Translations under genes and position numbers: made by a program
In this document: positions 24,322 to 42,367 of the stretch, one piece after another
Position numbering within the stretch: the first letter of the stretch is position 1
Layout of the letters: every line of letters begins with the position of its first letter
The notes under the pieces: model-generated
The model's database searches: none
What the model was told of the DNA's origin: nothing
Seen by the model: only the letters and a program-made list of their open reading frames with translations
From: Deltaproteobacteria bacterium
GTDB lineage: Bacteria; SAR324; NAC60-12
Length of the DNA: 56,180 bases
Reading direction: 5' to 3'
NCBI GenBank assembly: GCA_002683785.1
Contig: NYUB01000088.1
Span: 5,160 to 61,339, forward strand

Positions 24322-25503
24322 TCAGGCACTCCAGAGCTTGATGGAATCTGCAAAAGTTCCAGCCTGTTCACGAATCGGCTGCATCTGTCCTGAATTTTCA
24401 GCATATTTGAATGCAGTGTAAGGTATGTTTTCTTCTGCCAGACAGTTCTGCAGCATCGGCCGGTCGAGCAAAGCCGGGTCACAAAAACTGGGTGCGGCAA
24501 AGATCACTCCTTCCGCCTGGTTTTTCCGAACGGCTTCCACCAGATATTGTCCCTTGTCAGACGTTACCGGCACATACTTGGCAGAAGTCTCATTGGAGTG
24601 GTTGAGAAAACCGTCCGCCAGGTTTTCCAGAGGATCTCCAGAAGTTGGCACATCCTCGAGAAGCCAGCGTGTGACAAGCATGAAATCATCATCCACGATG
24701 TAGCATCCGGCCATTTCGATGGATCGGATCAAATTCAAAGGAGGCTGTTCACAGAAAACTCCACTGACGACAACCCGGCAGTTATCCCGCATCACCTGTT
24801 CCTCCTTCTCGACGGCTGAAATGTAATCCCGGATCAGTTGGGTATGTTCCTCCACAGGCAACACCATTCCGGCCCGGATGACGAGGTAGACATCCGGGCT
24901 GGGGGTTTTCCAGGGGCGTTTTGCACGATAGTGATAAAGGTCCTGAATCGCTCTTCGGTTTTCATTGTAGACTTCGATCGATTTCCATAAATCATCTGGA
25001 CTGATCTGCTTTCCTGAAAGCTTTTCAAGATCACTCAGCAACTGCTTCAGTTCATTGACGTAGTAACTTCCTCCGATGTCCCTGGCGTAGTTTTGGGGGA
25101 CATCGAAATAGCGCACATACTTGTCTTCGAACATCAGTTGCCACATGCCTGATAGGTTGCGGATCACATCACAGATGCTGGGAAACAGCATGCCGTCCAG
25201 AACGTCGAGCCTTCCTGTCAAACCGAGTTCGATGGTGGATCTTGGAATGCGGCAAATGTAACTCTGGTAGTAGGCATCCCCCTGGATGACTTCCAACTGG
25301 TCTCCTCCGCCGAGGATCCCCACCGGCAGCATTCCTGCTGCATGGATGATTTCTCTCGGGACGTAAACGGGCATATAGCCGATCACCTTTCGTCCCTTTT
25401 CTGCAGCTTTCCATTCTCGTACCTCTGAAAATTCAAGATCATCGAATAGCCGACGGCAGCGATCGACGATGGCCGCGCTACCACCATTTTGAAAGTTGTT
25501 CAT
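24322..25503 (-). CDS. bcrC: Benzoyl-CoA reductase class I, subunit C
   Basis: GDAYYQSYICRIPRSTIELG, FPSICDVIRNLSG, PSFCDPALL and QAGTFADSIKLW motifs. Confidence 0.95.
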   Translation of the reverse strand: MNNFQNGGSAAIVDRCRRLFDDLEFSEVREWKAAEKGRKVIGYMPVYVPREIIHAAGMLPVGILGGGDQLEVIQGDAYYQSYICRIPRSTIELGLTGRLDVLDGMLFPSICDVIRNLSGMWQLMFEDKYVRYFDVPQNYARDIGGSYYVNELKQLLSDLEKLSGKQISPDDLWKSIEVYNENRRAIQDLYHYRAKRPWKTPSPDVYLVIRAGMVLPVEEHTQLIRDYISAVEKEEQVMRDNCRVVVSGVFCEQPPLNLIRSIEMAGCYIVDDDFMLVTRWLLEDVPTSGDPLENLADGFLNHSNETSAKYVPVTSDKGQYLVEAVRKNQAEGVIFAAPSFCDPALLDRPMLQNCLAEENIPYTAFKYAENSGQMQPIREQAGTFADSIKLWSA

Positions 25504-25504
25504 T

Positions 25505-26272
25505 TCAACAGTCCTCCCATTTTGGGGGACGCTTTTCGAGAAAGGATTGCAACCCTTCCACGGCGTCTCCGGTTTTCATCAATTGCTCAAGATACAGTTC
25601 CTCAACGGCCGATAGTTTACGTTTCAGATTTCCAATCACCCCTTTGCGGGCAGCTAGAACTGCATGGCGCAGAGAACTCGCACTTTTTGATGCCAGATGC
25701 TTCTGGAAGTAGACCCGTGCCGCTTTTTCAGGATCCTCATCGACTTGGTTCAGAAGTCCGATCCGCAAGGCTTCATCAGCCCCCACACTGCGTCCTGAAA
25801 AAAGCAGGTCTTCTGCATTCGACTGACCGATACGCCATGGAAGCAGACAAGAAGCTGCCGGAGCGATCACTCCCAGCATGATTTCCGGCTGTCCCATCTG
25901 GGCATCTGGTGCGGCGTACAACTGAGATCCTGCACAGGCCAGTTCGAGCCCTCCGCCAAGACACTGGCCTCGGATGACGACCAGCACCGGGTAGGGAAGA
26001 CCAAGCATCTTCAGCAGCAGTTGGTGGAAATCATGCAGCATGGCCTCACACTGTTCCGGAAGATGTTCCTCAACGCTGGCCCCAAAACTGAAATGCGGAC
26101 CTTCTGCATCCAGCAGGAGGCCACGAAGTTTTGGATTCCCGGAATGTTTTTCGAGTTCTTCTGAAATAGCCCTGATCATTTCGGAATCGAGGATGTTTGC
26201 CTTGGGACGTGCCAGTCTTAGGCGGAGCAATGTCCCATTCTCCTCGATCCAGGAGCCTACAGGATCCGTCAT
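25505..26272 (-). CDS. dch: Cyclohexa-1,5-dienecarbonyl-CoA hydratase
   Basis: Crotonase fold (LARPKANILD, HFSFGASVEEH, GQCLGGGLE, GQPEI); ATGA overlap with oah; cluster context. Confidence 0.9.
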   Translation of the reverse strand: MTDPVGSWIEENGTLLRLRLARPKANILDSEMIRAISEELEKHSGNPKLRGLLLDAEGPHFSFGASVEEHLPEQCEAMLHDFHQLLLKMLGLPYPVLVVIRGQCLGGGLELACAGSQLYAAPDAQMGQPEIMLGVIAPAASCLLPWRIGQSNAEDLLFSGRSVGADEALRIGLLNQVDEDPEKAARVYFQKHLASKSASSLRHAVLAARKGVIGNLKRKLSAVEELYLEQLMKTGDAVEGLQSFLEKRPPKWEDC

Positions 26273-27387
26273 GATGCTTTTCGATCCAGCCCAGGCATCA
26301 GTGCATCGGTGAATTCCTCCGACCAACGCTGTCCCTGGGCAAGTGCACGGCGCAGGGCGACAAAGTCCACTTCCCGTTGGGTTTTTGTTCCTTCATTGAA
26401 AGCCCTGAACCCTGCTCTTGCTTCGGTCATCATGTTGTTCGCAAGCCACGCGCGTGCATCTTCCTTGTTGCGATTCCAGGCTTCGAGTTTAGGCTTTCTC
26501 AGTTCCTCGACAGTTTTGGTCATGCAGTCCGGAAACGTATAGAGCAGTTTGGTACAGAGAGCCTCGACGGCTTCATCCAATAAAGACAGATCCGTCGTTC
26601 CACTTTTCAGCAAAGTCTTGGCCTCGGTCAAGGCCTCTCCAGTTTTGTTCTCACCGTAAGCAAAACTGCCCCATGGATCGAACATCTGCTGTGTCTCCAC
26701 CAGAGGATTTGGCAGCCACTCGCCTTCAACCCTCAGGGCAGGAACGATTCCACTGATCATTCCATTGAGATAAACCTTGTGTGCTGACCAGACTTCGCAG
26801 AGCGTTCCGGATTCCATGGCCTTTTCTCCTGTCATCATCACCGGCAGAAAGTCCGTCGAACCGCCGATGGGAGCTGACCCATGTTTGGGACCTGCCTGGC
26901 CGAATCGGGCCAGATCCTGTGCGATCGAAAAATCACAGGCCATCCCGATTTCCTGGCCCCCTCCGACACGCATTCCATTGACCCTGCATACGACTGGTTT
27001 GTCGCAGGACAGGATGGATGAAACCATATCGTTGAAAAGCCTCATGTATTGTCGATACTCCTGTGGCCTGCCTGCATAATACTCGGCATATTCCTTGGTG
27101 TTTCCTCCGGTGCAAAAGGCTCTGTCCCCACTGCCGGTGAAAACTACGGCAACACTGTCACGTTCATTGGAAGCCTTGCGGAAGGCGAGGATCGCACCCT
27201 TGACCATCTCGGTGGTGTAGGAATTGTACTGTGCGGGATTATCCAGCGTGATCCAGATGTTGAAGAGACCTTTGACGGCCTGGCCATCCGAACCAAGCAC
27301 AGGTTTTTTTTCATACAGAATTCCTGGAAAATCCTGTCCGGAATCAAAATTATGATCTTTGTAGTTGAAATCCGACTCGGTTGTCAT
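26269..27387 (-). CDS. oah: 6-oxocyclohex-1-ene-1-carbonyl-CoA hydrolase (ring opening)
   Basis: LDNPAQYNSYTT, FCTGGNTKEYAEYY, GQAGPKHGSAP and NNMMTEARAGFRAF motifs. Confidence 0.93.
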   Translation of the reverse strand: MTTESDFNYKDHNFDSGQDFPGILYEKKPVLGSDGQAVKGLFNIWITLDNPAQYNSYTTEMVKGAILAFRKASNERDSVAVVFTGSGDRAFCTGGNTKEYAEYYAGRPQEYRQYMRLFNDMVSSILSCDKPVVCRVNGMRVGGGQEIGMACDFSIAQDLARFGQAGPKHGSAPIGGSTDFLPVMMTGEKAMESGTLCEVWSAHKVYLNGMISGIVPALRVEGEWLPNPLVETQQMFDPWGSFAYGENKTGEALTEAKTLLKSGTTDLSLLDEAVEALCTKLLYTFPDCMTKTVEELRKPKLEAWNRNKEDARAWLANNMMTEARAGFRAFNEGTKTQREVDFVALRRALAQGQRWSEEFTDALMPGLDRKAS

Positions 27388-27405
27388 TGTTAGTCCTTTG
27401 TGTGT

Positions 27406-28473
27406 TCATGGAACCAGAACAGCACGCTTCGTGAGTTCGTGCCGTTGGGCTGCATTGAAAATATTCTGGATTGAATCCAGAGGGTACTGCTCAACGAAAG
27501 GAGCCACTGCAACGCTTCCGTTCATCACGAGTTCTAGAGCTGCGGGATATAGTTCAGGGGCACATCCCCAGTTTCCCAGGGCACGTGCGTCAAAGGCCAT
27601 CAGGTTTGACAATCGAAGTTCAAACCGATCCATGGTGAATCCAACCACACAAAGTGTCCCCCCATGGGTAAGAAGACCGAATGCGGTTTTTTGACCTGCA
27701 ACGCTTCCGGAACATTCAAAGAGGTACCATTCCTGTGCAGGAAGTCCTTGATTTTCAGCAAATTCGAGAATCCTTTTTTTAAATTCCCGTCCTTCCACCT
27801 CACGTGCGTCAAGGGCCAAGGCCGCACCGTTTTGCCGAACGCTTTCAAGCCTGCTCGCATCAATGTCGATCGCCACCACTGAAGCCCCTAGTGCTGCACA
27901 GATCTGCACGGCATAGCCTCCAATGCCTCCTGCTCCAATAACGACCGCTAAATCACCCTTTCCAATTCCTGAACGAACTGCAGCTTGATAAGGTGTAGTG
28001 ACCGCGTCTGCGATCACCGATACATCGGCTAGAGTCAATCCAGCAGCTTCAAGTTTTGTCTCATCCACTTCGCATAGTCCATATTCTGGGACCCTAACGT
28101 GGGAAGCGAATCCACCCTGAATGTCATTGCCTGGCATTTTCTGGCTACGGCAGATGGTTCCTCGCCCCCTGAGGCAGAGACCGCATTTCCCACAGGGAAT
28201 GACAGCCGGTATGATCACTTTTTTCCCCACCCAGCTTTCTGCACCTTCACCTGCTTCAAGAACCAGTCCGCTGATCTCATGTCCTAAAATTAAAGGAAGA
28301 GGGTGGTTCGGACGGACTCCATCAAAATAATAGCCAAGGTCCGTATGACAGACTCCGCATCCGGACACCTCGACTAAAAGCTCTGCCGACACCGGAGAAG
28401 GTAGATCAAACTCCTTTCTCACCAGGGGTTTCCCTGCTTCCTCCATTTGCCATGCGTAGCCCTTCTGCATCAT
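27406..28473 (-). CDS. had: 6-hydroxycyclohex-1-ene-1-carbonyl-CoA dehydrogenase
   Basis: Zn-ADH motifs CHTD, GHE and CxxCxxC; [21 protein letters not shown] and [17 protein letters not shown]. Confidence 0.92.
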
Positions 28474-29053: not shown

Positions 29054-29309
29054 TGCAAGGATGTTTTTCCTGTGGTTGAGTATGAAGAAGATGAGAGAAA
29101 TCGGAGAGGAAAGCAGATCTACCCTGACCGATAATTCCAGATTCATGAAGCATTCCTTGGAATACAGAAATAGGATTTCTCAGAATGCATAAAAAATGAT
29201 TAAGGTCTTTTTTTTTGACATCCCCAAGGAATTCCTTTAATTTTGATTTTTTTATCGACGGGTATTGTGCCAGTTGAAAACAAAAATATGCTTTGAAATG
29301 AGGAGATCT

Positions 29310-30473
29310 ATGAATAAGAAAATATTAGGAGTTCTGATCGTATTTGGGCTTATGGGCTCACCGCTTTATGCCGAGAAAGTGAAAGTTGGATTCATGACCA
29401 CTCTCTCGGGACCAGCCGGCATCATCGGTAAACAAATGAAGCATGCTTTCCAATTGGGATTGGATCACATTGGCAATGCCTTTGGTGGAATGGAAAGTTC
29501 TGTCATCTATGGAGATGATCAACGTAAACCCGATGTTGCCAAGCAACTGGCCGACAAGATGGTCAAGAAACATCAAGTGCATTTCGTCACAGGAGTCATC
29601 TGGTCGAATTTGCTGGTCGCGATCCATGGACCAGTCACACGTTCCAATACATTTCTTGTCAGTGCCAACGCAGGTCCCTCGACGGTTGCAGGCAAGCGCT
29701 GTTCTGAGAATTTCTTTAATGTTTCCTGGCAGAATGACCAAACTCCTGAAGCGATGGGTAAATACCTTCAGGATAACGGCATCAATAATGTCTACTTGAT
29801 GGCCCCGAATTATCAGGCGGGAAAGGATATGCTGGCAGGTGTGCAACGTTATTATAAGCGCAAGATTTCCGGAAAGGTTTTCACTAAACTGGGACAGAAG
29901 GATTTCCAGGCTGAAATTTCTACCCTTCGTGCATCAAACCCTGGAGCAGTTTTTGTCTTCCAGCCCGGAGGAATGGGGATCAATTTTGTGAAACAGTACA
30001 ACCAGGCAGGTTTGATGGGTTCAGTTCCACTTTACACGGCATTCACCGTGGATGCGGTTTCCCTTCCGGCCCTCAAAGGTTCAGCAGTGGGAGTGTTGGG
30101 AACCCAAACTTGGAGTCCTGACCTGGATAATCCAGTCAATCGCAGATTTGTACGTGATTTCCGCAAAAAATATGGTTATATCCCATCCTTCTATGCGGCG
30201 CAGTCTTATGACCTGGTCCGTTTCATCGATCACGCCATCCGTGTTGCAGGAGGGATTTCAGATCGGGACGCATTGCGTGATGCAATGCGTTTGGGAGGCT
30301 ACCCTAGCACCCGTGGGAATCTGCGTTTCAACAACAACCACTTCCCAATTCAGAATTTCTACCTGCGTGAAGCGGTCAAAGACTCCGATGGAAGTTATAC
30401 CACCAAGATCATCGACACCGTCTTCACCGATCACGGAGACAATTACGCCAAAGACTGCCGGATGAAATGGTAA
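29310..30473 (+). CDS. LivK-type ABC substrate-binding protein (aromatic-acid-binding subgroup)
   Basis: Signal peptide; GFMTTLSGP, DDQRKPD, SWQNDQ, APNYQAGKD and NNHFPIQNFY motifs. Confidence 0.88.
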   Translation: MNKKILGVLIVFGLMGSPLYAEKVKVGFMTTLSGPAGIIGKQMKHAFQLGLDHIGNAFGGMESSVIYGDDQRKPDVAKQLADKMVKKHQVHFVTGVIWSNLLVAIHGPVTRSNTFLVSANAGPSTVAGKRCSENFFNVSWQNDQTPEAMGKYLQDNGINNVYLMAPNYQAGKDMLAGVQRYYKRKISGKVFTKLGQKDFQAEISTLRASNPGAVFVFQPGGMGINFVKQYNQAGLMGSVPLYTAFTVDAVSLPALKGSAVGVLGTQTWSPDLDNPVNRRFVRDFRKKYGYIPSFYAAQSYDLVRFIDHAIRVAGGISDRDALRDAMRLGGYPSTRGNLRFNNNHFPIQNFYLREAVKDSDGSYTTKIIDTVFTDHGDNYAKDCRMKW

Positions 30474-30559
30474 GTCCGTTTTCACAAGCCTGGCAGAATC
30501 TCCAAAGGCTTGTGAGACAAGGGCGTCAACTCACCCAAAGGACTCCGGACTGAAAAGAC

Positions 30560-31480
30560 ATGGGACTGCTGCTAATTGAGCAAGCATTCAACGGTCTTCA
30601 GTTCGGAGTGATGCTGTTCCTGATTGCCGCTGGACTGACCCTGGTCTTCGGCATCATGGACTTGGTCAACCTCTCCCACGGTTCATTGGTGATGGTCGGA
30701 GCTTATCTGGCGACGACCTTGATCGAATGGACCGGATCCTTCCTGCTCGGAATTCTGTTTGCACTGCCTGCTACGTTTCTTGTCGGAGTGGTGGTGGAAG
30801 TTTTGGTGTTGAGGACTCTTTATGAGCGGGATCACCTGGACCAGGTTTTGGCCACCTTCGGGCTGATCCTTTTTTTCAATGAAGTGATTCGCATCGTCTG
30901 GGGGCCTGCCTCGCTCTATTCCGGTCTGCCCGAAGGTTTATCTGGTCATGTCGAAATCCTTCCCGGTGTTCCCTATCCCACTTTTCGCTTGATGATCATA
31001 CTGGCTGGGTTGCTGGTAGCAGTTTTGATTTATGTCATCGTTGCCAAAACGAGGCTTGGCATGCTCATCCGTGCCGGAGCGAGCAATCGTGAAATGGCGG
31101 GTGCACTCGGAGTCAACATCCGTATGCTGTTCACCCTGGTCTTCGGTCTGGGTGCCAGTTTCGCAGGACTCGCCGGGATGATGCTGGGGCCCTTGACGAG
31201 TGTTGAACCTGGCATGGGAGAACCTCTTTTGATTTTGGCCTTTGTTGTGATCATCATTGGTGGGATCGGTTCCATCCGTGGAGCCTTCATTGCCTCTATT
31301 TTAGTCGGCCTTGTGGATACCCTCGGGCGGGTTTTCCTGCCTATGCTGTTGAGAAGCATGGTTGCTGATTCCACTGCCGACGGGGTGGGACCCGCACTCG
31401 CTTCTATGCTGATCTATATCCTGATGGCCGGAATTCTTGTCATTCGTCCGCGAGGGCTCTTTCCCGCTCGAACCGGTTAA
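30560..31480 (+). CDS. LivH-type ABC permease
   Basis: NGLQFGVMLFLIAAGLTLVFGIMDLVNLSHG and VIIIGGIGS motifs. Confidence 0.9.
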   Translation: MGLLLIEQAFNGLQFGVMLFLIAAGLTLVFGIMDLVNLSHGSLVMVGAYLATTLIEWTGSFLLGILFALPATFLVGVVVEVLVLRTLYERDHLDQVLATFGLILFFNEVIRIVWGPASLYSGLPEGLSGHVEILPGVPYPTFRLMIILAGLLVAVLIYVIVAKTRLGMLIRAGASNREMAGALGVNIRMLFTLVFGLGASFAGLAGMMLGPLTSVEPGMGEPLLILAFVVIIIGGIGSIRGAFIASILVGLVDTLGRVFLPMLLRSMVADSTADGVGPALASMLIYILMAGILVIRPRGLFPARTG

Positions 31481-31494
31481 CCGCTGATTTTTCC

Positions 31495-32466
31495 ATGAGT
31501 GCTGATAAACTCTGGATCACGTGGGCAGGTATGGCCTTGCTGGCGCTCATTCCCATCCTGATCCAGGTGTTCGAACTTCCGGTTTTCTACACGGAGATGT
31601 TTTGTCGGATCATGATCCTTGCCCTCGCCGCAATGAGCCTCGATTTGATTCTCGGTTTTGGAGGAATGGTCAGTTTCGGACATGCGGTTTATCTTGGAAT
31701 CGGATCTTACACCGTGGGGATTTTCAGTTTTTACGAAATCGATAACGGTTTCATCCAATTCCCTGCAACCCTGGTGATTTGTGGAATTTTTGCCCTGCTG
31801 ATTGGAATGATGAGTCTGAGGACGAGTGGCGTTTATTTCATCATGATCACTTTGGCTTTTGCACAGATGGTTTTTTTTCTTGGCATCAGCCTCGAAGAAT
31901 TCGGAGGTGACGACGGAATGCCCGTTTATCGCAGTGAGTTCGGTGGATGGATCGATCTTAATGATCCCCTCAGTTTTTACTACTTCGTTTTTGCCATACT
32001 GCTGCTGTTGCTTTTCCTCTGCCACCGCATCATCCATTCCCGTTTCGGGATGGTTCTTCAAGGCTGCAAATCGAATGAAGCACGGATGCAAGCCCTGGGG
32101 TTTCCAACCTATCGTTACAAGCTTGCAGCATTTGTCATCTCCGGAATGATCTGCGGCATTGCCGGAGCGCTTTTTGCCAACTGGAATGAATTTGTCTCGC
32201 CTGCAATCATGCACTGGACCCGATCCGGAGATTTATTGATCATGGTCATTCTCGGCGGTATGGGGACCCTCTTTGGGCCGGTATTGGGAACGGTGCTGTT
32301 TCTGCTTCTTGAAGAATACCTTCCTGAGTGGATGGATGCCTTGTTATTCCCGGGTGCTGGAGAACACTGGATGGGAGTAATGGGCCCCTTGCTGATTCTG
32401 CTTGTTCTATTCGCCCGTGGAGGGATTCATTCACTGCTCGGCCGCTTGAGAATCAGAAATGGCTGA
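31495..32466 (+). CDS. LivM-type ABC permease
   Basis: GGMVSFGHA, GVYFIMITLAFAQM and MVILGGMGTLFGP motifs. Confidence 0.9.
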   Translation: MSADKLWITWAGMALLALIPILIQVFELPVFYTEMFCRIMILALAAMSLDLILGFGGMVSFGHAVYLGIGSYTVGIFSFYEIDNGFIQFPATLVICGIFALLIGMMSLRTSGVYFIMITLAFAQMVFFLGISLEEFGGDDGMPVYRSEFGGWIDLNDPLSFYYFVFAILLLLLFLCHRIIHSRFGMVLQGCKSNEARMQALGFPTYRYKLAAFVISGMICGIAGALFANWNEFVSPAIMHWTRSGDLLIMVILGGMGTLFGPVLGTVLFLLLEEYLPEWMDALLFPGAGEHWMGVMGPLLILLVLFARGGIHSLLGRLRIRNG

Positions 32467-33235
32467 AATATTACTCAAAACCGAGAAGCTGACCAAATCC
32501 TTTGGAGGCCTGGTTGCAATCAGCGAGCTTTCCATGGAGGTTGAAGAAGGAGAGATACACGCCGTAATTGGGCCCAACGGGGCCGGGAAAACCACCTTGA
32601 TCGCCCAACTTTCGGGATCCCTCAGACCGGATTCCGGAAGTATTTTTTTCCAGAATCAGGACATTACCCAACTTCCAGAATACCGCCGAAGTTCCCTGGG
32701 ACTGGCCCGCTCCTTCCAGATCACGAGTGTGCTCCAGAATTTTTCCGCACTGGATAATGTCGCACTTGCCGTTCAGGCCCAGGCTGGTCACTCATTTCGG
32801 TTCTGGAGCAAAGCCCGGAAAGCAACCGATCTGAGAGAGCCTGCCCTCAATGTGCTAGAAAAAATTGGTCTTTCTGAACGGGTGGATGTTCCTGCCTCAA
32901 GTCTCAGCCACGGAGAGCAAAGGCAATTGGAACTGGCGATGGCGCTTGCAACCCGACCGAAAATGCTTTTGCTCGACGAACCCATGGCCGGGATGGGGGT
33001 TGAGGAAAGTCAGCGCATGGTCGAGGTCTTGGCGGAACTAAAGGGAACACACACACTGGTGCTCATCGAACATGATATGGATGCCGTCTTTGCCCTGGCC
33101 GACCGCATCACGGTTCTTGTCTATGGACAGTCCATTGCTTGTGACACCCCCCCAAACATACGTTCCAACCCTGAAGTCCGAAAAGCATACTTGGGTGAAG
33201 GCGAAGAATCCTCTGAAACATTTGTGGATGAATAA
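32459..33235 (+). CDS. LivG-type ABC ATPase
   Basis: GPNGAGKTT, ARSFQIT, LSHGEQR, LLDEP, IEHDMD and AYLG motifs. Confidence 0.92.
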   Translation: MAEILLKTEKLTKSFGGLVAISELSMEVEEGEIHAVIGPNGAGKTTLIAQLSGSLRPDSGSIFFQNQDITQLPEYRRSSLGLARSFQITSVLQNFSALDNVALAVQAQAGHSFRFWSKARKATDLREPALNVLEKIGLSERVDVPASSLSHGEQRQLELAMALATRPKMLLLDEPMAGMGVEESQRMVEVLAELKGTHTLVLIEHDMDAVFALADRITVLVYGQSIACDTPPNIRSNPEVRKAYLGEGEESSETFVDE

Positions 33236-34412: not shown

Positions 34413-34428
34413 CTCGGCAGAAGGTTTT

Positions 34429-35262: not shown

Positions 35263-35471
35263 GGGGATCCTTTCTTATCCGGATTAAATCAATGCCAAAC
35301 TCTCAACCACTGGCTAAGATAATCCATCAGTCCCTGGCATTCAATGCCTTAAATCTTGATGGGAGTTGTGAAAGGATCATTCAAATTCGCTCTGTTGAAT
35401 GGATTCTTAACTAACAGAAAATAATTTATATCCGTGAGTCATGGGAGCAGAGATCTGCTCCCACCTTGGTA

Positions 35472-36662
35472 TTATCCCATTTTCAGTACGATGGCTGCTG
35501 CAGTATCCCCAGCTGCACAGCCCGCAACCAGCAGATAACCACCACCCAGCAAGGCCAATTCTTCGATGCCTTCGATGATCAAACGTCCGACGGTCGGCCC
35601 CTGGGGATGTCCGAAAATGAGGGAGCAACCGTAATTGTTCATCATCTCTGCATCCAGTCCAAGCGTTTGGGCCAGATAAAGATCGTTGGCAGCAAAGGGG
35701 TTGTGGGTTTTGATGACCTTCAAATCTCCGGGTGTGAGATCGGCACCTTCAAGCGCCATCTGTGATGCAGGAGTGACTGCCATCGCCATGTGCGCTTTTT
35801 TGGCACGGGCGTATCCGTATGACAGAATCCGGATAATCCGGTTTGGGTCTTCACTCAATTCCATGGCCTTGTCCCGGGTGGTCAGTGTCAGCGCACATTG
35901 TCCATCCGCAGGATGCGTCTGGGTTCCAAAAGTGTGAACGCCGTCGGGGATGACGGGACGAAGTTTAGCCAGACCTTCAGCGGTGCTTTCCATCACCCCT
36001 TCATCGGCGTCCACCGTGAGGGTTTGCTTTCTGGAAATTTTGAGTTCCACCGGAAACATATAGCCTTTCTGAAAAGTACGGTCCTGTTCGAGTGCTTGCT
36101 GATACTGCTGAAAACGTCGCACCGTGAGTTCATCACACTGTTCACGGCTGATTCCTGAGGCCCCAGCCACGTTTTCTGCAGTCTGGATCATCGCTCCACC
36201 TGCCCAGGGATCGAGGTTGAAATTGTCCATCACCCAGTCTTCCGAAACCACCTGCCCGCCCGGTCCTTTGGGATTGGGCCAGATGCTGTGCGGACCGTTC
36301 GAACAGCGGTCGCTCATCAGGCAGTATGCGGTATCGTACATGCCGGTTTCAACACCCATCCCCGCCTGATAAACAGAAATGGTGGAGGTGGAGCAGGCCT
36401 GGTTGATCATCACTCCCGGAACCGAATCGGCTCCGATCAGCGCGGAGGCCCAAGGACCTCCGTAAAATCCCCGGGGCTGGTGCACCGTGGAACCGAGAAA
36501 CAGATAATCGATGATTTTCGGATCCCATTGTTTCTTTTCAAGCCAGCGACGGGATGTTTCCGCTCCCAGGGTGATTGCGTTTTCCTGGGCAAAGCTCCCC
36601 TGCCAGCGGGCAAAAGGAGAGCTGTAATAACCGCGGTAGGGAATGAAGGCATGGTTTAGCAT
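35472..36662 (-). CDS. Thiolase family protein (acyl-CoA C-acyltransferase)
   Basis: NQACSTS nucleophile Cys, ADEG, GHPQG and C-terminal GCAAGD motifs. Confidence 0.88.
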   Translation of the reverse strand: MLNHAFIPYRGYYSSPFARWQGSFAQENAITLGAETSRRWLEKKQWDPKIIDYLFLGSTVHQPRGFYGGPWASALIGADSVPGVMINQACSTSTISVYQAGMGVETGMYDTAYCLMSDRCSNGPHSIWPNPKGPGGQVVSEDWVMDNFNLDPWAGGAMIQTAENVAGASGISREQCDELTVRRFQQYQQALEQDRTFQKGYMFPVELKISRKQTLTVDADEGVMESTAEGLAKLRPVIPDGVHTFGTQTHPADGQCALTLTTRDKAMELSEDPNRIIRILSYGYARAKKAHMAMAVTPASQMALEGADLTPGDLKVIKTHNPFAANDLYLAQTLGLDAEMMNNYGCSLIFGHPQGPTVGRLIIEGIEELALLGGGYLLVAGCAAGDTAAAIVLKMG

Positions 36663-36761
36663 CTTGAATGACTCCGTAATCAGGTTATCTTGAAATATTA
36701 CGCATGGAAGACTTCATTCTGGACGGAGGTATATGCCGTCTTTCAGAAAAAGAATAAATCT

Positions 36762-38342
36762 TCACCATTCCATGGCAGGAGAGTCTTTGTCCAGCAGTTC
36801 GAGCATTGTTCCGGATTGGATGAGGTCTGCCACAACCTCGAGCGGATCAGTCAATGGGAGATCCCGATCCAGATAGGGGATTTTTTCACGAACCAGTTGC
36901 AGGACCTCCAAGGTCTTGGAACTGAGCTGGTCACTTCCACGAATATCCGCCGCCTGACAGGCACAGATCAGTTCGAAAGCTGTGATGAGACGTGTATTGC
37001 GCAATATGTCCCGTGCCCTTCTTGCCCCAATCAGACCCATTGAAACATGATCCTGAAAATCACCGGTGGAGGTCAACGTCTGAATCGAAACGGGCGTGCA
37101 GAGCGAACGGTTTTCGGCAGTCAGGGAGGTGGCCGCAAACTGTCCTCCCATCAGCCCCAGTCGCAGCCCTGGATTCTCCCTGCAGAGAAAGGGCGGAAGC
37201 CCTACGTTGTGGTCAGGGTCGAGAAAACGGTCGGTCCGCCGGTCCGAGAGGTTGCAGAGGTTCGTCAAGACGATGGAAAGCTGGTCCATGGCATTGGCGA
37301 TGTACTGCCCGTGAAAGTTGGCATTATGAAACGCCTCCCCGTGTTCCACCAAAATCAGCGGATTGTCATTGGTCGAATTGAGTTCGGTCTTTACTGTCTG
37401 CTCGATGAAGAGGGTGGTATCGAGCACCGGACCCAGAATCTGTGGGGTGGCACGGATCGAATAAGGGTCTTCGATCTGTTGTTCCAGCCCTTCCGGTTCT
37501 TCGCTCCGCAGTTCTCGCAGCCAGCGTTCGACCTCCTCATCCTGGACCACCATTTTGCTGTCAGAAAGGATGTCGAAGATGGATGCTGCCACCCGGATTT
37601 GTCCCGGATGCGGTTTATTTTCATGTGCGGCCGGATGGAAGGGCATGATCTTGCCCTTCAGCACCTCAATGCTGAGGCTGGAAATAAGCAGGTAGTTCTT
37701 GATCAGGGTTTTTGCATCTGAGGTCAGACAGGCTGCGATGCCGGTCATCGTCGAGGTGCCGTTGATCAACGCCAGGCCTTCCTTGTAGCCCAGTACCATC
37801 GGTTTGATTCCGGCCCGTTCCAGGGCTTCGCTGCCGGAGACGATTTCCCCCTCGAAGGAGGCACGCCAATACCCGCATCCAACCATTGCCACACAGGCCA
37901 GCGGTCCCAGGTCTCCGCTTGCTCCCAGGGATCCCTGTTCGGGAATGCAGGGCAGGATGCCGGCGTTGTAAAGATCGACGTATTTTTTATAGTTCTCGAA
38001 GCTGATCGCGGAAGCACCGCGGCCCAGGGAATTGAGACGGGCGAGCATTGTCGCCCGTACATATTCATCATCCAGGAGACGGCCGACGTTGGAGGCTACG
38101 CCGCGAAGGATGTTGTTCTGCAAAGCCTCGGCGTAGGCGGGCGGAACCAGCCAGTTGACAAAACCTCCGACTCCTGTGGTGACGCCATAGATCACCCGGC
38201 CTGAATCGACAAACTGATCCAGAAGCTTCCTGGAAGCCCGAACGCGTTCCTCGATTTCAGGGGATATTTCCACCCAGAACTCCGGGTGCCGTGCCATTTC
38301 GGTGATTTGTTCGACGCTAAGGGTGCTTCCATCGAGAATCAT
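36762..38342 (-). CDS. MIO-dependent aromatic amino acid aminomutase/ammonia-lyase, AdmH/EncP-like, copy 2 (526 aa)
   Basis: IYGVTTGVGGFVN, LQNNI...NVG, GSLG-ASG-DLGPL (MIO), KEGLALINGT, NDNPL and GDFQDHVS motifs; AAGGAGG RBS before ATG 38342. Confidence 0.9.
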   Translation of the reverse strand: MILDGSTLSVEQITEMARHPEFWVEISPEIEERVRASRKLLDQFVDSGRVIYGVTTGVGGFVNWLVPPAYAEALQNNILRGVASNVGRLLDDEYVRATMLARLNSLGRGASAISFENYKKYVDLYNAGILPCIPEQGSLGASGDLGPLACVAMVGCGYWRASFEGEIVSGSEALERAGIKPMVLGYKEGLALINGTSTMTGIAACLTSDAKTLIKNYLLISSLSIEVLKGKIMPFHPAAHENKPHPGQIRVAASIFDILSDSKMVVQDEEVERWLRELRSEEPEGLEQQIEDPYSIRATPQILGPVLDTTLFIEQTVKTELNSTNDNPLILVEHGEAFHNANFHGQYIANAMDQLSIVLTNLCNLSDRRTDRFLDPDHNVGLPPFLCRENPGLRLGLMGGQFAATSLTAENRSLCTPVSIQTLTSTGDFQDHVSMGLIGARRARDILRNTRLITAFELICACQAADIRGSDQLSSKTLEVLQLVREKIPYLDRDLPLTDPLEVVADLIQSGTMLELLDKDSPAMEW

Positions 38343-38383
38343 TTTTCCCTCCTTGTTAAATTTTAATTGGCCGTTGGTCAAAG

Positions 38384-38678
38384 TCAGGAATCCTTGATCC
38401 TTCTTATCAGCTTTGCCTTGGATTCATATTTGGGAAGCGTTCCCTGATCAATCAGTTCCACTTCTGTCCGAAAAATCAGTTTTTTCGCAGTAGTTCCAGT
38501 TCCTCAAAATATGGCACATCATCACGCTTCAGCCCGGTACCATTGAATTGTGCCTGGGAAAAAGATGAATGACCCAGATATGATCGATTCCATTCTAAAA
38601 AGCCTCCTGCGGAACTTTTAAGAAGGGTTCCTCCGGCAGGGTTTCCATCGATTTGTTCCAGCATCCTGTATCGCTCAT
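38384..38678 (-). pseudogene. Internally deleted, frameshifted phenylacetate-CoA-ligase (PaaK) family gene
   Basis: GAGGAGG RBS then MSDTGCWNKSMETLPEE* (PaaK-like N-terminus); second frame HSSFSQAQFNGTGLKRDDVPYFEELE; then C-terminus LIFRTEVELIDQGTLPKYESKAKLIRR*; the central catalytic part is absent. Confidence 0.7.
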
Positions 38679-38687
38679 TTTTCCTCC

Positions 38688-40070
38688 TCAACAGGTGTAA
38701 AGGTGAGGATTACAGTCCTGAACGAAGGGCTGAAGGGTCTCCAGTGTTTCATCAAAGGTTGTCAGTACCTGTTCAACCTCGGCTTCTGCCATCGGTGTCG
38801 AGAGGATCAGGAGTCCACGGCTGCTGGAAAATATTCCGCGGTTTATCAGTTCAAGATGCAGCAGTTTTGGCAGTTGTCCACACTGCTCCTGAGCACGAAC
38901 GACGTCCCCGGCATTCATGATTTCATCCTCCGTCCAGTGAAGTCCGATGACCGAACCAATGCCTGTGGCCTGGGCCCGGAAACCCTTGCGGCTGAATGCC
39001 TCAGAGATGCCGTCGCGTATCTTTTTTCCCATGCCGTTGAGACGTTCAATTTCGTCAGGGTCATAGAGTTCCAGGGTTGTCAGCCCTGCGGCCATGGTCA
39101 GGTGGTTGCCGTTGAAGGTTCCTGAATGGGAGATGGATTCGGGCTGATCTGGATCGAAAAGCTTCATGATCTCTTGACGTCCACCAAAAGCCCCGACCGC
39201 GAGACCTCCTCCAATGATCTTACCGAAAGCCGTCAGGTCTGGACGGAGTCCTTCCATTTCCTGCATTCCACCGTGATGCATGCGGAAACTGATCACCTCG
39301 TCAAAAATCAGCAACACGCCGTAATGTTGCGTCAGTTCGCGAAGCCCCTTGAGATAACCCCTTGCGGGTGTCACTACCCCTCCGGCACCAAGCATGGGTT
39401 CCACGATCAAGGCTGCAGTTTGTTCTTGATTTCGTTTCAGTATTTCTTCCACGGCATCGAGGGAGTTAAAAGGCACCACATCGACTTCGGAAAGGACGGA
39501 CCGGGGCACCCCACGGCTGTTCAGACGGGGTTGATGCATTCGCTCCGGATCAGCAGAGGCATGAACGCTGACTTCCACATAATCATGGGTCCCGTGGTAA
39601 CCCCCGTCGATCTTGATCACACGCTCCCGGCCGCTGAATGCCCGTGCTGCACGGAGGGCGAACATCGTGGCTTCCGTCCCTGAATTGCAATAACGCAGTT
39701 GATCCAACGTGGACACACGGCTGCACAGATGTTCTGCATGGAGGATCTGCATTTCAGATGGGGCACCGAAGACGGTACCGCGTTCCAGTTCCTGCCGGGT
39801 GCTCTCCATCACACGTGGATGGGCATGGCCATGGACCAGCGAGGAATAGTTGTTGAGCAGGTCCAGATAGTGATTGCCATCCAGATCGGTAAGCCTGCAG
39901 CCCCTGCCGCGCTGCATGTATAGCGGATAGGGGGAAAAGTGGGTCGCCGAACGAGTGTCCCCGCCGGGCAGACGGTTTCCGGCCCGCTGATGTTGTACCA
40001 GGGATTGAGCGCTTTTTTCCCGGTAGCGCTGAAGGATGGATTGGAAAACCGGATGAGTTTCTTCTTTCAT
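38688..40070 (-). CDS. Class III PLP aminotransferase (GSA-mutase-like fold, beta-amino-acid transaminase-like)
   Basis: LPGGDTRS, NSGTEA, GGYHG, FDEVISFR, FGKIIGGG (PLP Lys) and HSGTFNGN motifs; lacks the HemL GVNSPVRA signature. Confidence 0.85.
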   Translation of the reverse strand: MKEETHPVFQSILQRYREKSAQSLVQHQRAGNRLPGGDTRSATHFSPYPLYMQRGRGCRLTDLDGNHYLDLLNNYSSLVHGHAHPRVMESTRQELERGTVFGAPSEMQILHAEHLCSRVSTLDQLRYCNSGTEATMFALRAARAFSGRERVIKIDGGYHGTHDYVEVSVHASADPERMHQPRLNSRGVPRSVLSEVDVVPFNSLDAVEEILKRNQEQTAALIVEPMLGAGGVVTPARGYLKGLRELTQHYGVLLIFDEVISFRMHHGGMQEMEGLRPDLTAFGKIIGGGLAVGAFGGRQEIMKLFDPDQPESISHSGTFNGNHLTMAAGLTTLELYDPDEIERLNGMGKKIRDGISEAFSRKGFRAQATGIGSVIGLHWTEDEIMNAGDVVRAQEQCGQLPKLLHLELINRGIFSSSRGLLILSTPMAEAEVEQVLTTFDETLETLQPFVQDCNPHLYTC

Positions 40071-40155
40071 AAAAATCTCCCAATGGATGAATCATGAAAC
40101 ATGGTTTTCAGTGTTTCACGGATCCGGAATCATGTCGTCATAAATCCAGTTTCCT

Positions 40156-41736
40156 TCAGGATTTAAATACATCAAGCTCTGAGGGAATGGCTTCGAGAAT
40201 GCTTCCCTCACGCAACAGTCTCGCCGCGGTTTCGATAGGCAACGTCAGCGATTCATCATGGTCAAGATAGGGTACCTCCTCACGGACCCGCTGATAGACC
40301 TTTGCAGTCACGGAACCCAGATCCTGCGGATCCCGGCAGTCGGCGGCCTGACAGCCGCAGAGCAGTTCATACCCCAAAATGTAATACGCATTTCCAAGAA
40401 TTTCCCGGGCCCGGAGGGCGGCCACCAGGCCGAAGGATACATGATCCTGGAAATCTCCCGTTGATGGCAGCGTCTGAATCGATACAGGAACGCAGAGTGA
40501 ACGGTTTTCCGCCGTCAGGGAGGTGGCCGCATACTGTCCGCCCATCATACCGTGCCTCAATCCCGGATTTTCACGGCAGAGAAAAGGCGGCAGCCCATGA
40601 TTGTGACCAGGATCGAGGAAGCGGTCGGTACGCCGGTCTGAGAGGTTGCTCATGGTCGTGAGAACGATGGAAAGCTGATCCATGGCGTTGGCAATATACT
40701 GTCCATGGAAGTTGGCATTGTGATAGGCTTCCCCCCGTTCTACGACAATCAGAGGGTTGTCATTCGTCGAGTTGAGTTCGGTTTCTACCGTCCCTCGAAC
40801 ACTGCTCAAGGTATCCACCACCGGCCCCAGAATCTGGGGTGTTGCTCTGATGGTATAAGGATCCTCTATCTGTTGATCCATTCCCTGGGGCTGCTCACTC
40901 TTGAGTTGCTGAAGCCAACGTTCCACCTCCTCATCCTGGACCACCATTTTGCTGTCAGAAAGGATGTCGAAGATGGCTGCGGCCACCCGGATTTGTCCCG
41001 GATGAGGCTTGTTTTCATGTGCCGCAGGGTGAAAGGGCATGATCTTGCCTTTGAGCGTTTCAATGCTCAGGGCGGAAACCAGCAAATAACTGTTGACCAG
41101 CTTTTGGGCTTCTTCCGTGATGCATGCTGCCACCCCGGTCATGGCCGAAGTCCCGTTGATCAGCGCTAAACCCTCCTTGTAATTCAGCCGCATGGGTTCA
41201 AGTCCTGCTTTTTCCAGTGCTTTTCCTCCTTCAATGATCTCTCCCCCGCAGCGTGCCAGCCAGTGGCCGGTTCCAACCAGGGCAATATAAGCCAAAGGCC
41301 CAAGATCTCCGCTGGCACCCAGAGAACCCTTCTCAGGAATGCAGGGGACAATACCCGCGTTGTATAGCTCGACATACTTGCGATAATTTTCGAAGGAAAT
41401 GCCGGAAACCCCGCGGCCCAGTGAATTCAACCGGGCCAGCATCGCAGCACGGACATAGGTGTCATCAAGGTAGGGGCCCACATTGGAAGTAACCCCGCGC
41501 AGGATGTTGTTCTGAAGTTGTTCAGCAAGGTGAGGTGGAACAAGCCAGTTGACAAAACCGCCCACTCCGGTGGTGACTCCGTAGATAATTCTTCCTGATT
41601 CCACAAAACGGTCCAGAAGTTCGCGTGATTCACGAACCCGTTTCTCGATCTCCGTGGAGATTTCAATCCGAATCTTTGGATTTCCTGAAATCTCTGAAAT
41701 GCCTCTGACGCTGAGGGTCGCTCCGTCCAGTATCAT
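40156..41736 (-). CDS. MIO-dependent aromatic amino acid aminomutase/ammonia-lyase, AdmH/EncP-like, copy 1 (526 aa)
   Basis: Same motifs as copy 2, including the ASG MIO triad; GGAGG RBS before ATG 41736. Confidence 0.9.
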   Translation of the reverse strand: MILDGATLSVRGISEISGNPKIRIEISTEIEKRVRESRELLDRFVESGRIIYGVTTGVGGFVNWLVPPHLAEQLQNNILRGVTSNVGPYLDDTYVRAAMLARLNSLGRGVSGISFENYRKYVELYNAGIVPCIPEKGSLGASGDLGPLAYIALVGTGHWLARCGGEIIEGGKALEKAGLEPMRLNYKEGLALINGTSAMTGVAACITEEAQKLVNSYLLVSALSIETLKGKIMPFHPAAHENKPHPGQIRVAAAIFDILSDSKMVVQDEEVERWLQQLKSEQPQGMDQQIEDPYTIRATPQILGPVVDTLSSVRGTVETELNSTNDNPLIVVERGEAYHNANFHGQYIANAMDQLSIVLTTMSNLSDRRTDRFLDPGHNHGLPPFLCRENPGLRHGMMGGQYAATSLTAENRSLCVPVSIQTLPSTGDFQDHVSFGLVAALRAREILGNAYYILGYELLCGCQAADCRDPQDLGSVTAKVYQRVREEVPYLDHDESLTLPIETAARLLREGSILEAIPSELDVFKS

Positions 41737-41833
41737 GAATTCTTCCTCCATCCGGGGGTATTTGAAAAACCTTTCATTCGATGGTATCAGAGATTTAGAG
41801 ATGTTATCTTGCAAAGATTCCAGTAAAATTTTA

Positions 41834-41876
41834 TTTGATGAAATAATTAATCATAAATTATTAGTTTGATGAAATA
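41834..41876. promoter_or_regulatory. Putative Lrp-family operator (direct repeat)
   Basis: TTTGATGAAATA at 41834-41845 and 41865-41876 (31-bp period) in the AT-rich divergent intergenic region. Confidence 0.55.
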
Positions 41877-41878
41877 TT

Positions 41879-42367
41879 ATGTCAATACGGCTGGATAATT
41901 ATGATTTAAACATTCTGGATGAACTTCAAAACCGTGGACGTCAAAGCAATGCGGACCTGGCCGAAAAAGTTCACCTCTCTGCTTCGCAATGCCTGCGTCG
42001 AGTACGACGTCTCGAGGAACAGGAAGTGATTCGATCTTATGCCGCATTGCTGAATCCGGAAGCTTTGGGCCTGGGCATTCAGGCATTCATCCACATCACT
42101 TTGGAGAAACACGATGAAGATCCAGCGAAGGTGTTTTCAGAAGAAATCAAGGATTGGGAAGAGGTCTTGGCATGTTGGGCAATAACGGGCGATACTGATT
42201 ACCTGATGCATGTTGTTGCACCTAACCTGAAAATTTTTTCGGAACTTGTGCTGAAAAGGCTGCTGGCTCAGCCGATGGTGGCCTCAGTCAAATCCAGCAT
42301 CCTGCTTGAGGAACTGAAAGCCACGAATGTATTGCCTTCAACTCATCTGGTAGGAAATACTGAATAA
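41879..42367 (+). CDS. Lrp/AsnC family transcriptional regulator
   Basis: LDNYDLNILDELQNRGR, LSASQCLRRVRRLEE and ITGDTDYL motifs. Confidence 0.95.
   Translation: MSIRLDNYDLNILDELQNRGRQSNADLAEKVHLSASQCLRRVRRLEEQEVIRSYAALLNPEALGLGIQAFIHITLEKHDEDPAKVFSEEIKDWEEVLACWAITGDTDYLMHVVAPNLKIFSELVLKRLLAQPMVASVKSSILLEELKATNVLPSTHLVGNTE

Follow-up and report, generated by a model that had tools for sequence, protein, structure and literature searches.

We analyzed a 56,180-nucleotide stretch of DNA (the window; contig NYUB01000088.1, here G000:C88:5160-61339) from the 3.64-Mb, 87%-complete metagenome-assembled genome (MAG) of a marine SAR324 bacterium. At its center lies a cluster of genes for two enzymes of the 4-methylideneimidazole-5-one (MIO) family, MIO1 and MIO2, together with a class-III aminotransferase and a thiolase. 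On the minus strand, the order of transcription is MIO1, aminotransferase, a 345-nt spacer, MIO2, and thiolase, and the gene for an Lrp-type regulator is divergent on the plus strand (Table 1). This co-directional arrangement had been described in an earlier note made from the sequence alone, and its genes, apart from a supposed ligase remnant (see below), were confirmed as intact. The had-oah-dch-bcrCBAD cluster for benzoyl-CoA degradation, which the earlier note had placed about 7 kb away, was likewise recovered: the end of had is 7.0 kb from the thiolase gene, and all seven genes scored over the cut-offs of their profiles (TIGR02263, 664 bits; TIGR02260, 808; TIGR02259, 705; TIGR02261, 420; TIGR03189, 376; TIGR03200, 595; TIGR03201, 547). 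As also anticipated, no nonribosomal peptide synthetase (NRPS), polyketide synthase (PKS), or hut genes were found among the annotated open reading frames (ORFs) of the window, some small ORFs lying outside that annotation.

The best explanation for these sequences is that the cluster forms an Lrp-controlled catabolic operon that would feed an aromatic alpha-amino acid, via its beta-isomer, into the benzoyl-CoA pathway. The predicted route would lead from an aryl-alanine to the beta-aryl-alanine, a 3-oxo-3-arylpropanoate, its CoA ester, and finally aroyl-CoA plus acetyl-CoA; we consider it probable, though by no means assured. What the genomes show directly is which genes are present, how far they are conserved, and that they are associated with bcr and box genes; each of the catalytic steps is predicted from this. 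The outline of such a catabolic route, put forward in the earlier note, was supported by the analysis, but it had to be corrected regarding the ligase gene, the dedication of the thiolase, and the range of substrates. For comparison, a scan of one genome per species for relatives of MIO2 detected 48 loci, of which 43 (L001-L041, L046, and L048, from 41 genomes, with 61-81% identity to MIO2) made up the core set. The core genomes are marine or sediment MAGs from SAR324/Deltaproteobacteria, Alphaproteobacteria, and Gammaproteobacteria (including Woeseiaceae), with one from Terriglobia.

Table 1. Coordinates of the cluster and of associated features in the window
Feature	Coordinates	Strand	Basis or remarks
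MIO enzyme 1	40156..41736 (ORF open to 41814)	-	526 aa from ATG 41736; PF00221
Class-III aminotransferase, like glutamate-1-semialdehyde aminomutase (GSAM)	38688..40070	-	PF00202, 210 bits
Weak trace of PaaK-type ligase C terminus	38384..38503, inside spacer 38343-38687 (345 nt)	-	tblastn; PF14535 below cut-off
MIO enzyme 2	36762..38342 (ORF open to 38381)	-	526 aa from ATG 38342; PF00221
Divergent thiolase	35472..36662	-	PF00108 and PF02803
Palindromic hairpin, 9-bp stem	35442..35463		9 nt past thiolase stop codon; consensus scan only
Lrp/AsnC-family regulator	41879..42367	+	PF01037, PF13412, PF13404
Lrp-MIO1 control region	41834..41885	-	promoter-like site and 12-nt direct repeat
Feruloyl-CoA-synthase-like AMP-forming acyl-CoA ligase, 617 aa	47083..48936	-	PF00501
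bcrD, bcrA, bcrB, bcrC, dch, oah, had	20753..28473	-	7/7 above NCBIfam equivalog cut-offs
Branched-chain-type ABC amino acid importer (binding protein, two permeases, ATPase)	29265..33235	+	Pfam

Predicted functions of the encoded enzymes

Both MIO proteins matched PF00221 over profile positions 1-466 (MIO1, 540 bits; MIO2, 538 bits; cut-off, 27.3), and the best NCBIfam model for both was TIGR04475, the phenylalanine aminomutase that forms D-beta-Phe. Their best relative of solved structure was AdmH from andrimid biosynthesis in Pantoea agglomerans (3UNV; 571 bits for MIO1 and 577 bits for MIO2), followed by the tyrosine aminomutase SgTAM (∼334-340 bits) and histidases (∼270-310 bits). The Ala-Ser-Gly triad, which forms the MIO group, reads GSLGASGDLGPL in both proteins and aligned with the MIO residue X of 3UNV and 2OHY, and the catalytic Tyr of the YG.TTG loop was kept in 49 of 49 aligned rows. 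At the position of SgTAM His93, which we take to read the 4-OH of tyrosine, both window proteins carry Val. AdmH shares this Val and the triad; unlike AdmH, the window proteins are encoded next to catabolic genes rather than NRPS or PKS genes, and they scored below the TIGR04475 cut-off, which was reached in none of 88 genomes from the window's phylum. These comparisons suggest that the MIO proteins work like AdmH, yet stand outside the TIGR04475 equivalog group. By this kinship, the first step would convert L-Phe to beta-Phe by moving its amino group from C2 to C3.

The two paralogs are 73% identical and differ in the substrate pocket. In MIO2 the pocket stretch GLRLGLMGGQF is identical to that of AdmH, whereas MIO1 has GLRHGMMGGQY, with His and Tyr in place of the Leu and Phe of AdmH. 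The Tyr falls on the position of SgTAM Tyr415 (numbering derived from the alignments). The family motifs quoted in the earlier note were present in the MIO proteins, except that MIO1 has GMMGGQ instead of GLMGGQ. Judging by these residues, MIO1 probably takes another aryl-alanine than MIO2, with Tyr as a first guess. Tyr is a possible further substrate of the route because the paralogs differ at pocket residues and because genes for 4-hydroxybenzoyl-CoA reductase (4-HBCR) are frequent neighbors of the related loci; with Tyr, MIO1 would give rise to 4-hydroxybenzoyl-CoA, for which a 4-HBCR-like enzyme is encoded elsewhere in the genome. Of the 41 core genomes, 33 had a 4-HBCR match at E ≤ 1e-150 and 14 had one that exceeded the cut-off, irrespective of the MIO clade present, so that this distribution does not bear on whether MIO1-type enzymes take Tyr. 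The start of MIO1 is probably ATG 41736, which has GGAGGAAG 5 nt upstream, and that of MIO2 is probably ATG 38342, where the 526-aa database copy also starts. Over ∼80 residues (KGKIMPFHPAAHENKPHPGQIRVAA...VERWL) the two proteins are near-identical, which may reflect gene conversion between the copies.

For the aminotransferase, the best solved relative was 6K8H (361 bits), ahead of ForI (277), 2YKU (274), and GSAM (271), with 6IZ9 and 4AO9 as further beta-transaminase relatives; its nearest relatives were thus beta-transaminases, clearly so only for 6K8H. This structure is an omega-transaminase of Sphaerobacter thermophilus (StoTA) described as converting beta-Phe and other beta-amino acids (PMC10589169). 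Arg40 of the window protein aligned with StoTA R36, which according to the same source "might be" the residue that holds the substrate carboxylate (PMC10589169). The N-terminal PGG-x-T-R-S motif that the earlier note had reported is present as LPGGDTRS. Most related loci encode a second aminotransferase type, 33-38% identical to that of the window, whose top four solved matches (6K8H, 2YKU, 6IZ9, and 4AO9 for the enzyme of locus L027) all ranked ahead of every GSAM. The window protein is therefore treated here as a candidate beta-aryl-beta-amino acid transaminase. Like its nearest solved relatives, it would convert beta-Phe to 3-oxo-3-phenylpropanoate (benzoylacetate) in the second step. With the known beta-Phe transaminases (6K8H; Mesorhizobium 2YKU; Variovorax paradoxus 4AO9) it shares the GSAM-like class-III fold and the N-terminal Arg. 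It differs from them in being encoded together with a ligase and a thiolase; in the known cases CoA capture of the keto acid is unreported, and the keto acid appears to decay to acetophenone (PMC6150868).

Free benzoylacetate is labile in general, a point that bears on the order of steps. If the ligase acted first, it would make beta-phenylalanyl-CoA, the transaminase would work on the CoA ester, and no free benzoylacetate would arise. The ligase family takes C6-C3 acids, and an acyl-CoA beta-transaminase is described from lysine fermentation (PMC3149608). However, the closest relatives of both aminotransferase types act on free beta-amino acids, the Arg aligned with the proposed carboxylate-binding R36 of Sphaerobacter is retained, and free benzoylacetate is reported as a real intermediate in Aromatoleum, with a dedicated ligase (PMC4729919). 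We regard this swapped order as improbable and retain transamination before CoA activation in the proposed route.

The third step, from benzoylacetate to benzoylacetyl-CoA, would fall to the 617-aa feruloyl-CoA-synthase-like ligase, based on its family and on synteny. This protein scored 647.3 bits against PRK12582, below the cut-off of 777, and its counterpart in L027 scored above it (796.8 bits); homologs are labeled feruloyl-CoA synthase by the JGI annotation. In the closest relatives of the window, L004 and L005, the ligase gene adjoins lrp and its product is 66-68% identical to that of the window. In 17 further MIO loci a ligase of 38-42% identity is encoded inside the cluster or at its end. 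On this comparison, the 617-aa protein is the cluster's conserved ligase partner. The earlier note had instead taken the spacer between the aminotransferase and MIO2 genes to hold the remnant of a PaaK-like ligase, and had considered the local copy of the route to be possibly incomplete as a result; the intact 617-aa ligase removes this concern. Of the remnant itself, a weak C-terminal trace remained: a 39-aa frame (38387-38503) was identical at 11 of 20 positions to the C terminus of a PaaK-like protein from the same genome (E = 2e-5, 401-nt database, two queries), and the same frame matched PF14535 at E = 0.04 (14.6 bits; cut-off, 25), in both instances over only the C-terminal 20-27 aa. The supposed N-terminal 27-aa piece matched nothing, and the TIGR02155 search of the genome did not report the spacer. 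In L004 and L005 only ∼80-120 nt occupy this position. Among the 48 related loci, only L039 had a PaaK gene, at a distance of 8 kb from that for the MIO enzyme, and a PaaK-like gene was accordingly rejected as the ligase of the route. The PaaK-like ligase that gave rise to the spacer match (C54:4443-5702; 244 bits to TIGR02155) adjoins a 4-HBCR-like alpha subunit (C54:1666-3888; 800 bits; cut-off, 994), an unusual pairing.

The thiolase matched PF00108 (81 bits; cut-off, 26.4) and PF02803 (61 bits; cut-off, 27), fell below all NCBIfam equivalog cut-offs, and reached only 115 bits with its best solved structure. It is the sole member of its subfamily in the source genome, shares 51% identity with the thiolase embedded in the L027 operon, and belongs to a subfamily that was single-copy in 5 of 5 cluster-bearing genomes tested. 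In the SAR324 relatives G005 and G001, a 70-80% identical thiolase is encoded beside boxB and a benzoate-CoA-ligase gene. In a wider survey of 80 loci with 55-80% identical genes, from Desulfobacterales, Geobacteraceae, Holophagaceae, and others, nine thiolase genes were near a 4-HBCR-like enzyme, and three occurred with boxB and bcl. In two of the 80 (L139 and L140, from Deltaproteobacteria MAGs), the thiolase gene follows a ligase gene whose product is 56-57% identical to the L027 ligase. These loci (L139:2055-14768 and L140) encode a tripartite ATP-independent periplasmic (TRAP) transporter, the ligase, the thiolase (55% identical to that of the window), a 676-aa fusion of 3-hydroxyacyl-CoA dehydrogenase and enoyl-CoA hydratase, a MarR regulator, and a three-subunit 4-HBCR-like enzyme. 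This arrangement looks like side-chain beta-oxidation of an aryl-propanoid, and specifically like an anaerobic route from p-coumarate or 4-hydroxyphenylpropanoate to 4-hydroxybenzoyl-CoA. The subfamily is thus tied to (hydroxy)benzoyl-CoA metabolism. The L139/L140 arrangement and the operon-embedded copies point to a role in aryl thiolysis, other neighborhoods (see below) to one in the lower pathway, and the window thiolase is a candidate for cleavage of 3-oxo-3-arylpropanoyl-CoA; the fourth step would split benzoylacetyl-CoA into benzoyl-CoA and acetyl-CoA. A different thiolase, only 25% identical to that of the window, is encoded after the ligase in L025 (5913-6962) and L028 (6386-7435) and is a possible non-orthologous replacement.

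Conservation of the gene set and its association with benzoyl-CoA degradation

The combination of aminomutase, beta-type aminotransferase, CoA ligase, and thiolase recurred in many unrelated genomes, as the earlier note had suggested it should. A divergent Lrp gene accompanied the MIO gene in 28 of the 43 core loci and in 14 of the 19 full loci, i.e., those flanked by at least 4.5 kb on either side. The aminotransferase was found equally often (28/43 and 14/19), followed by the ligase (20/43 and 9/19) and the thiolase, which was inside the MIO operon (16/43 and 8/19). At least one of these three enzymes was encoded at 33 of the 43 core loci (16 of the 19 full loci). A tight operon was that of L027, in which MIO enzyme, aminotransferase, thiolase, ligase, and a short-chain dehydrogenase/reductase (SDR) follow each other with gaps of -7, 5, 19, and 2 nt. 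No enoyl-CoA hydratase was conserved with the MIO clusters, which fits the transaminase route because there the 3-oxo group would be installed by transamination. Several other genes of the window (those for MaoC, the dihydrolipoyl-dehydrogenase-like protein, a 614-aa ABC protein, EamA, PhyH, TauD, and the ABC importer) were rejected as members of the set, since they had no counterpart in the related loci.

These neighborhoods bear on whether the MIO enzymes might instead be Phe or Tyr ammonia-lyases, with cinnamate or coumarate then activated by the ligase and beta-oxidized to (hydroxy)benzoyl-CoA. The aminotransferase would in this case be accessory, for example clearing a beta-amino acid side product. 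Such a pathway would resemble EncP/H/I/J of enterocin biosynthesis. The ligase family bears the name of feruloyl-CoA synthase, and in L139 and L140 it occurs, as does the thiolase family, with a hydratase and dehydrogenase. A MaoC-like hydratase is encoded beside the window ligase, a FabG-like SDR is present in three loci besides L027, where it follows the ligase, and five loci (L012, L018, L035, L036, and L040) have an MIO gene with a thiolase or ligase gene and without an aminotransferase gene. Cinnamate is described as being degraded in this manner by Desulfococcus multivorans (PMC5109826). Against this stand the aminotransferase, whose gene is the commonest partner and in most cases directly adjoins that of the MIO enzyme, the lack of any hydratase conserved with the MIO clusters (MaoC occurred in no related locus), and the nearest characterized MIO relative, which is a mutase. 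We therefore judge a lyase route to be unlikely and take a mutase as the entry enzyme of the proposed route.

In an alignment of 49 MIO proteins, with the HutH-like protein of the source genome as the outgroup, 44 proteins from catabolic contexts fell on one side of a branch with a Shimodaira-Hasegawa-like approximate likelihood ratio test (SH-aLRT) value of 99, and four from other contexts, one of them encoded beside an NRPS, fell on the opposite side. The expected separation of window-type proteins from MIO proteins of other contexts was thus recovered. The tree was a quick IQ-TREE run with SH-aLRT, with long-branch warnings for the outgroup and L042-L044; fragments shorter than 450 aa (the first copies in L004 and L008, plus L040, L046, and L047) were excluded. 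Within the catabolic side, clade A (the MIO2 type) comprised 5 rows. Clade B (the MIO1 type) comprised 14, of which 13 had the His...Tyr pocket stretch. Clade C had 25 rows, mostly single-copy, with Gln or Met...Phe, Tyr taking the place of Phe in L025 and L028. Clades A and B are combined in the window, L004, L005, and L008, and clades C and B in L017.

The five loci outside the core set (51-56% identity; Mycoavidus, Pseudomonas, and actinomycetes) were without Lrp, ligase, or thiolase partners. Two had a distant aminotransferase, and L044 adjoins an NRPS gene. This last locus, together with the other bacterial AdmH-like genes that reside in natural-product clusters, would accord with a biosynthetic role, in which a beta-amino acid building block is produced by the MIO enzyme and aminotransferase. 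Thiolase and ligase would then be chance neighbors that serve only benzoyl-CoA and phenylpropanoid pathways, and the thiolase does also occur with had/dch and box genes. However, tight operons of all four genes exist, the MIO clade is separate from MIO genes in other contexts, and a transaminase that destroys beta-amino acids would be senseless in a biosynthetic cluster. Moreover, none of the large ORFs tested in core loci encoded an NRPS or PKS; they comprised three TonB receptors, one fused 2-oxoacid:ferredoxin oxidoreductase, and one protein without a family. We consider a biosynthetic role or chance neighborhood very improbable.

The TonB-dependent receptors are encoded upstream of Gammaproteobacterial MIO clusters (L023:2314-5070, L032:1016-3844, and L037:1870-4917), hinting at active uptake of a substrate across the outer membrane. 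The fused oxidoreductase (L005:638-5638; 1,666 aa with POR_N, POR, PFOR_II, TPP, and ferredoxin domains) is encoded upstream of the clustered ligase, Lrp, and MIO genes in a SAR324 relative. Uptake genes raise the question of whether the substrate is itself a beta-aryl amino acid: beta-Phe or beta-Tyr from natural products could be degraded by the transaminase, ligase, and thiolase, while the MIO enzyme interconverts alpha- and beta-isomers, for example from beta to alpha for protein synthesis. MIO mutases are reversible, and TRAP or ABC transporters as well as TonB receptors adjoin several clusters. In addition, known beta-Phe transaminases are reported from organisms enriched on beta-Phe (PMC6150868). 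By comparison, a common substrate such as Phe or Tyr is in better agreement with the Lrp-type regulator and with how widely the clusters occur in genomes from seawater and sediment, and we hold environmental beta-amino acids to be a quite improbable entry point. It is only in this entry compound that such use would differ from the proposed route.

The predicted link to benzoyl-CoA degradation was borne out at two levels. bcrCBAD or boxB adjoins 8 of the 43 core loci (bcr genes in 6, in addition to the window, and boxB in 2), and several Alphaproteobacterial loci adjoin a true or near 4-HBCR and a gene of the benzoate-CoA-ligase family. Across whole genomes, surveyed with bcrB (TIGR02260) and boxB (TIGR03225) as markers, either marker was over its cut-off in 32 of the 41 core genomes (bcrB in 28, boxB in 28, both in 24). 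Neither was found in nine, several of which are partial genomes of 1.8-2.7 Mb; one of the nine has sub-cut-off boxB fragments. Among the five genomes of the other type, none had bcrB and one had boxB. In 88 genomes of the window's phylum, an MIO gene was present in four (including the source genome), all four with bcrB, compared with bcrB in 9 of the other 84; the four belong to two genera and thus represent about two independent events. Also encoded in the source genome are a box cluster that includes a benzoate-CoA ligase, a true PaaK, and the 4-HBCR-like alpha subunit mentioned above; the organism can therefore probably handle hydroxylated products and work with or without oxygen. PaaA (TIGR02156) was not found in this 87%-complete genome.

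The 6.9-kb stretch of the cluster was detected in seawater and marine metagenomes of 13 studies, six runs of which possibly derive from the source sample. Four metatranscriptome libraries (two studies, three samples) hold the cluster at ≥99% identity, with single contigs that bridge thiolase and MIO2 and also MIO1 and aminotransferase. Such contigs are compatible with transcription as an operon; DNA carry-over is possible, so that presence is what they document. The RNA runs X15 and X18 cover 33.7-43.7 kb of the window and not 43.8-49.4 kb, a gap in coverage that is uninformative.

Control region and neighboring genes

Upstream of MIO1, the promoter-like site TTGACA-17-AATAAT (41885-41857) had 11 of 12 consensus matches and was the best of all sites found in a consensus scan that returned 10 where 5.8 were expected. 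An exact 12-nt direct repeat, TATTTCATCAAA, lies at 41876-41865 and 41845-41834, 31 nt apart, overlapping this site; its two copies are candidate operator sites for Lrp. At the other end of the cluster, the hairpin past the thiolase gene possibly marks the end of the operon. An Rfam scan of the whole window gave zero matches.

The branched-chain-type ABC importer encoded between had and the cluster is a possible uptake system for the route; it was without a conserved counterpart in the related MIO loci. Between the importer and the thiolase gene (33250-35262) are genes for Fe(II)/2-oxoglutarate dioxygenases of the TauD and PhyH families, O2-dependent enzymes amid an otherwise O2-independent aromatic island; neither is kept with MIO clusters. 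Directly after lrp (42373-43833) is encoded a dihydrolipoyl-dehydrogenase-type flavoprotein (NF004939; 660 bits, above the cut-off), for which 2-oxoacid dehydrogenase partners were not visible in the window. An 846-aa protein with ion-channel pore, TrkA-N/RCK, Castor/Pollux-like, Sel1, and TerB domains is encoded next to bcrD (18199-20739). The first 20 kb of the window hold flagellar and housekeeping genes.

The proposed route compared with known pathways

In the route as proposed, benzoyl-CoA would finally enter the BcrCBAD/Dch/Had/Oah or the Box pathway, the genes for both of which are present. O2 would be needed at no step, and two side-chain carbons would be retained as acetyl-CoA. Classical anaerobic Phe degradation in Thauera and Azoarcus has the same substrate and product. 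Its six enzymes, two of them complex oxidoreductases, lead through phenylpyruvate, phenylacetate, phenylacetyl-CoA, and phenylglyoxylate to benzoyl-CoA, and both carbons of the side chain are released as CO2. The proposed route, by contrast, would consist of four simple enzymes and keep acetyl-CoA. A shift from alpha to beta, followed by removal of the beta-amino group and thiolytic or related cleavage, is familiar from lysine 2,3-aminomutase in lysine fermentation and from the leucine 2,3-aminomutase/beta-keto pathway of Poston. Those aminomutases are radical SAM or B12 enzymes that act on aliphatic amino acids, whereas here an MIO enzyme would act on an aromatic one.

The last two proposed steps, from benzoylacetate through benzoylacetyl-CoA to benzoyl-CoA and acetyl-CoA, have a precedent in the ethylbenzene/acetophenone pathway of Aromatoleum aromaticum, where activation and thiolysis of benzoylacetate are described as established (PMC4729919, PMC5214803). 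In that organism, benzoylacetate arises from ATP-dependent ketone carboxylation by acetophenone carboxylase and is activated by the ligase Bal; here it would be derived from an amino acid. Beta-oxidation of cinnamate and 3-phenylpropanoate in D. multivorans, A. aromaticum, and R. palustris similarly involves CoA activation of a C6-C3 acid and a thiolase that yields benzoyl-CoA; in D. multivorans, thiolysis of 3-oxo-3-phenylpropionyl-CoA to benzoyl-CoA has been proposed (PMC5109826). In the window, an aminomutase and a transaminase would replace the dehydrogenase, hydratase, and dehydrogenase of this sequence, and the 3-oxo group would be present before CoA activation. We read the MIO clusters as a front-end swap of the aryl-propanoid beta-oxidation module, with mutase and transaminase substituting for hydratase and dehydrogenase.

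Several observations weigh against this interpretation. Both MIO proteins fell short of the TIGR04475 equivalog cut-off of 800 bits (MIO1, 736.6; MIO2, 744.4), and mutase and lyase are indistinguishable by sequence, so that support for a mutase product is indirect and comes from the conserved gene for a beta-type aminotransferase nearby. Aminotransferase, thiolase, and ligase genes were found together at only 10 of the 43 core loci (5 of the 19 full loci), and three full loci (L006, L019, and L021) have none of the three nearby; L006 shares a MAG with L001, which has an aminotransferase gene and a second MIO gene. In the window itself, the ligase gene lies 5 kb off the cluster, with three unrelated genes between it and lrp. 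The thiolase subfamily was present in only 27 of the 41 core genomes (and in none of the five other-type genomes). In G005 its gene stands in the row boxC-like, boxB, ligase, thiolase, and 17 to 21 of the 80 surveyed thiolase loci are ∼5 kb from had or dch. The had/dch neighborhoods point to a role in the lower pathway: the enzyme may be shared with, or part of, the lower benzoyl-CoA pathway, as a 3-oxoadipyl- or 3-oxopimeloyl-CoA thiolase, and it may carry out both the upper and the lower step. Free benzoylacetate decarboxylates readily, and the true PaaK of the source genome (649 bits) leaves room for the classical route. Finally, related genomes are non-independent, and the background rate for bcrB comes from one phylum only.

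A full-text literature search, in which subscription journals were thinly covered so that an earlier description is possible, found no published link between an aminomutase or beta-phenylalanine and benzoyl-CoA catabolism; the matches concerned taxol, plant benzenoids, biocatalysis, and the acetophenone pathway. The aminomutases are treated as biosynthetic in passages of a 2022 review on the MIO enzymes (PMC9002059). The enzyme families are thus already known, and what would be new is a peripheral route into the benzoyl-CoA pathway, which we hold to be rather likely, together with the first catabolic clade of MIO aminomutases.

Taken more broadly, these data raise the possibility of a widespread clade of this kind, which would provide a four-enzyme, O2-independent, and carbon-conserving conversion of Phe to benzoyl-CoA and, via the paralog, of Tyr to 4-hydroxybenzoyl-CoA. 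In marine SAR324, Woeseiaceae, Alphaproteobacteria, and Terriglobia, this conversion would take the place of the phenylacetate/phenylglyoxylate route or run alongside it, with oxygen (Box) as well as without it (Bcr); we rate this wider proposal as about as likely as not. If it is correct, engineered cells could use the enzymes as a compact set to produce benzoyl-CoA, beta-aryl amino acids, or beta-keto acids, and four cofactor-light enzymes (requiring MIO, pyridoxal phosphate, ATP, and CoA) would offer an alternative to the single textbook route of anaerobic Phe degradation. MIO aminomutases, which so far are known only from the biosynthesis of natural products, would gain their first catabolic role. 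Genes of these clusters are currently labeled histidine ammonia-lyase, HemL-like aminotransferase, and acetyl-CoA acetyltransferase in databases, and with such labels revised, the turnover of aromatic amino acids in marine metagenomes would be read differently.

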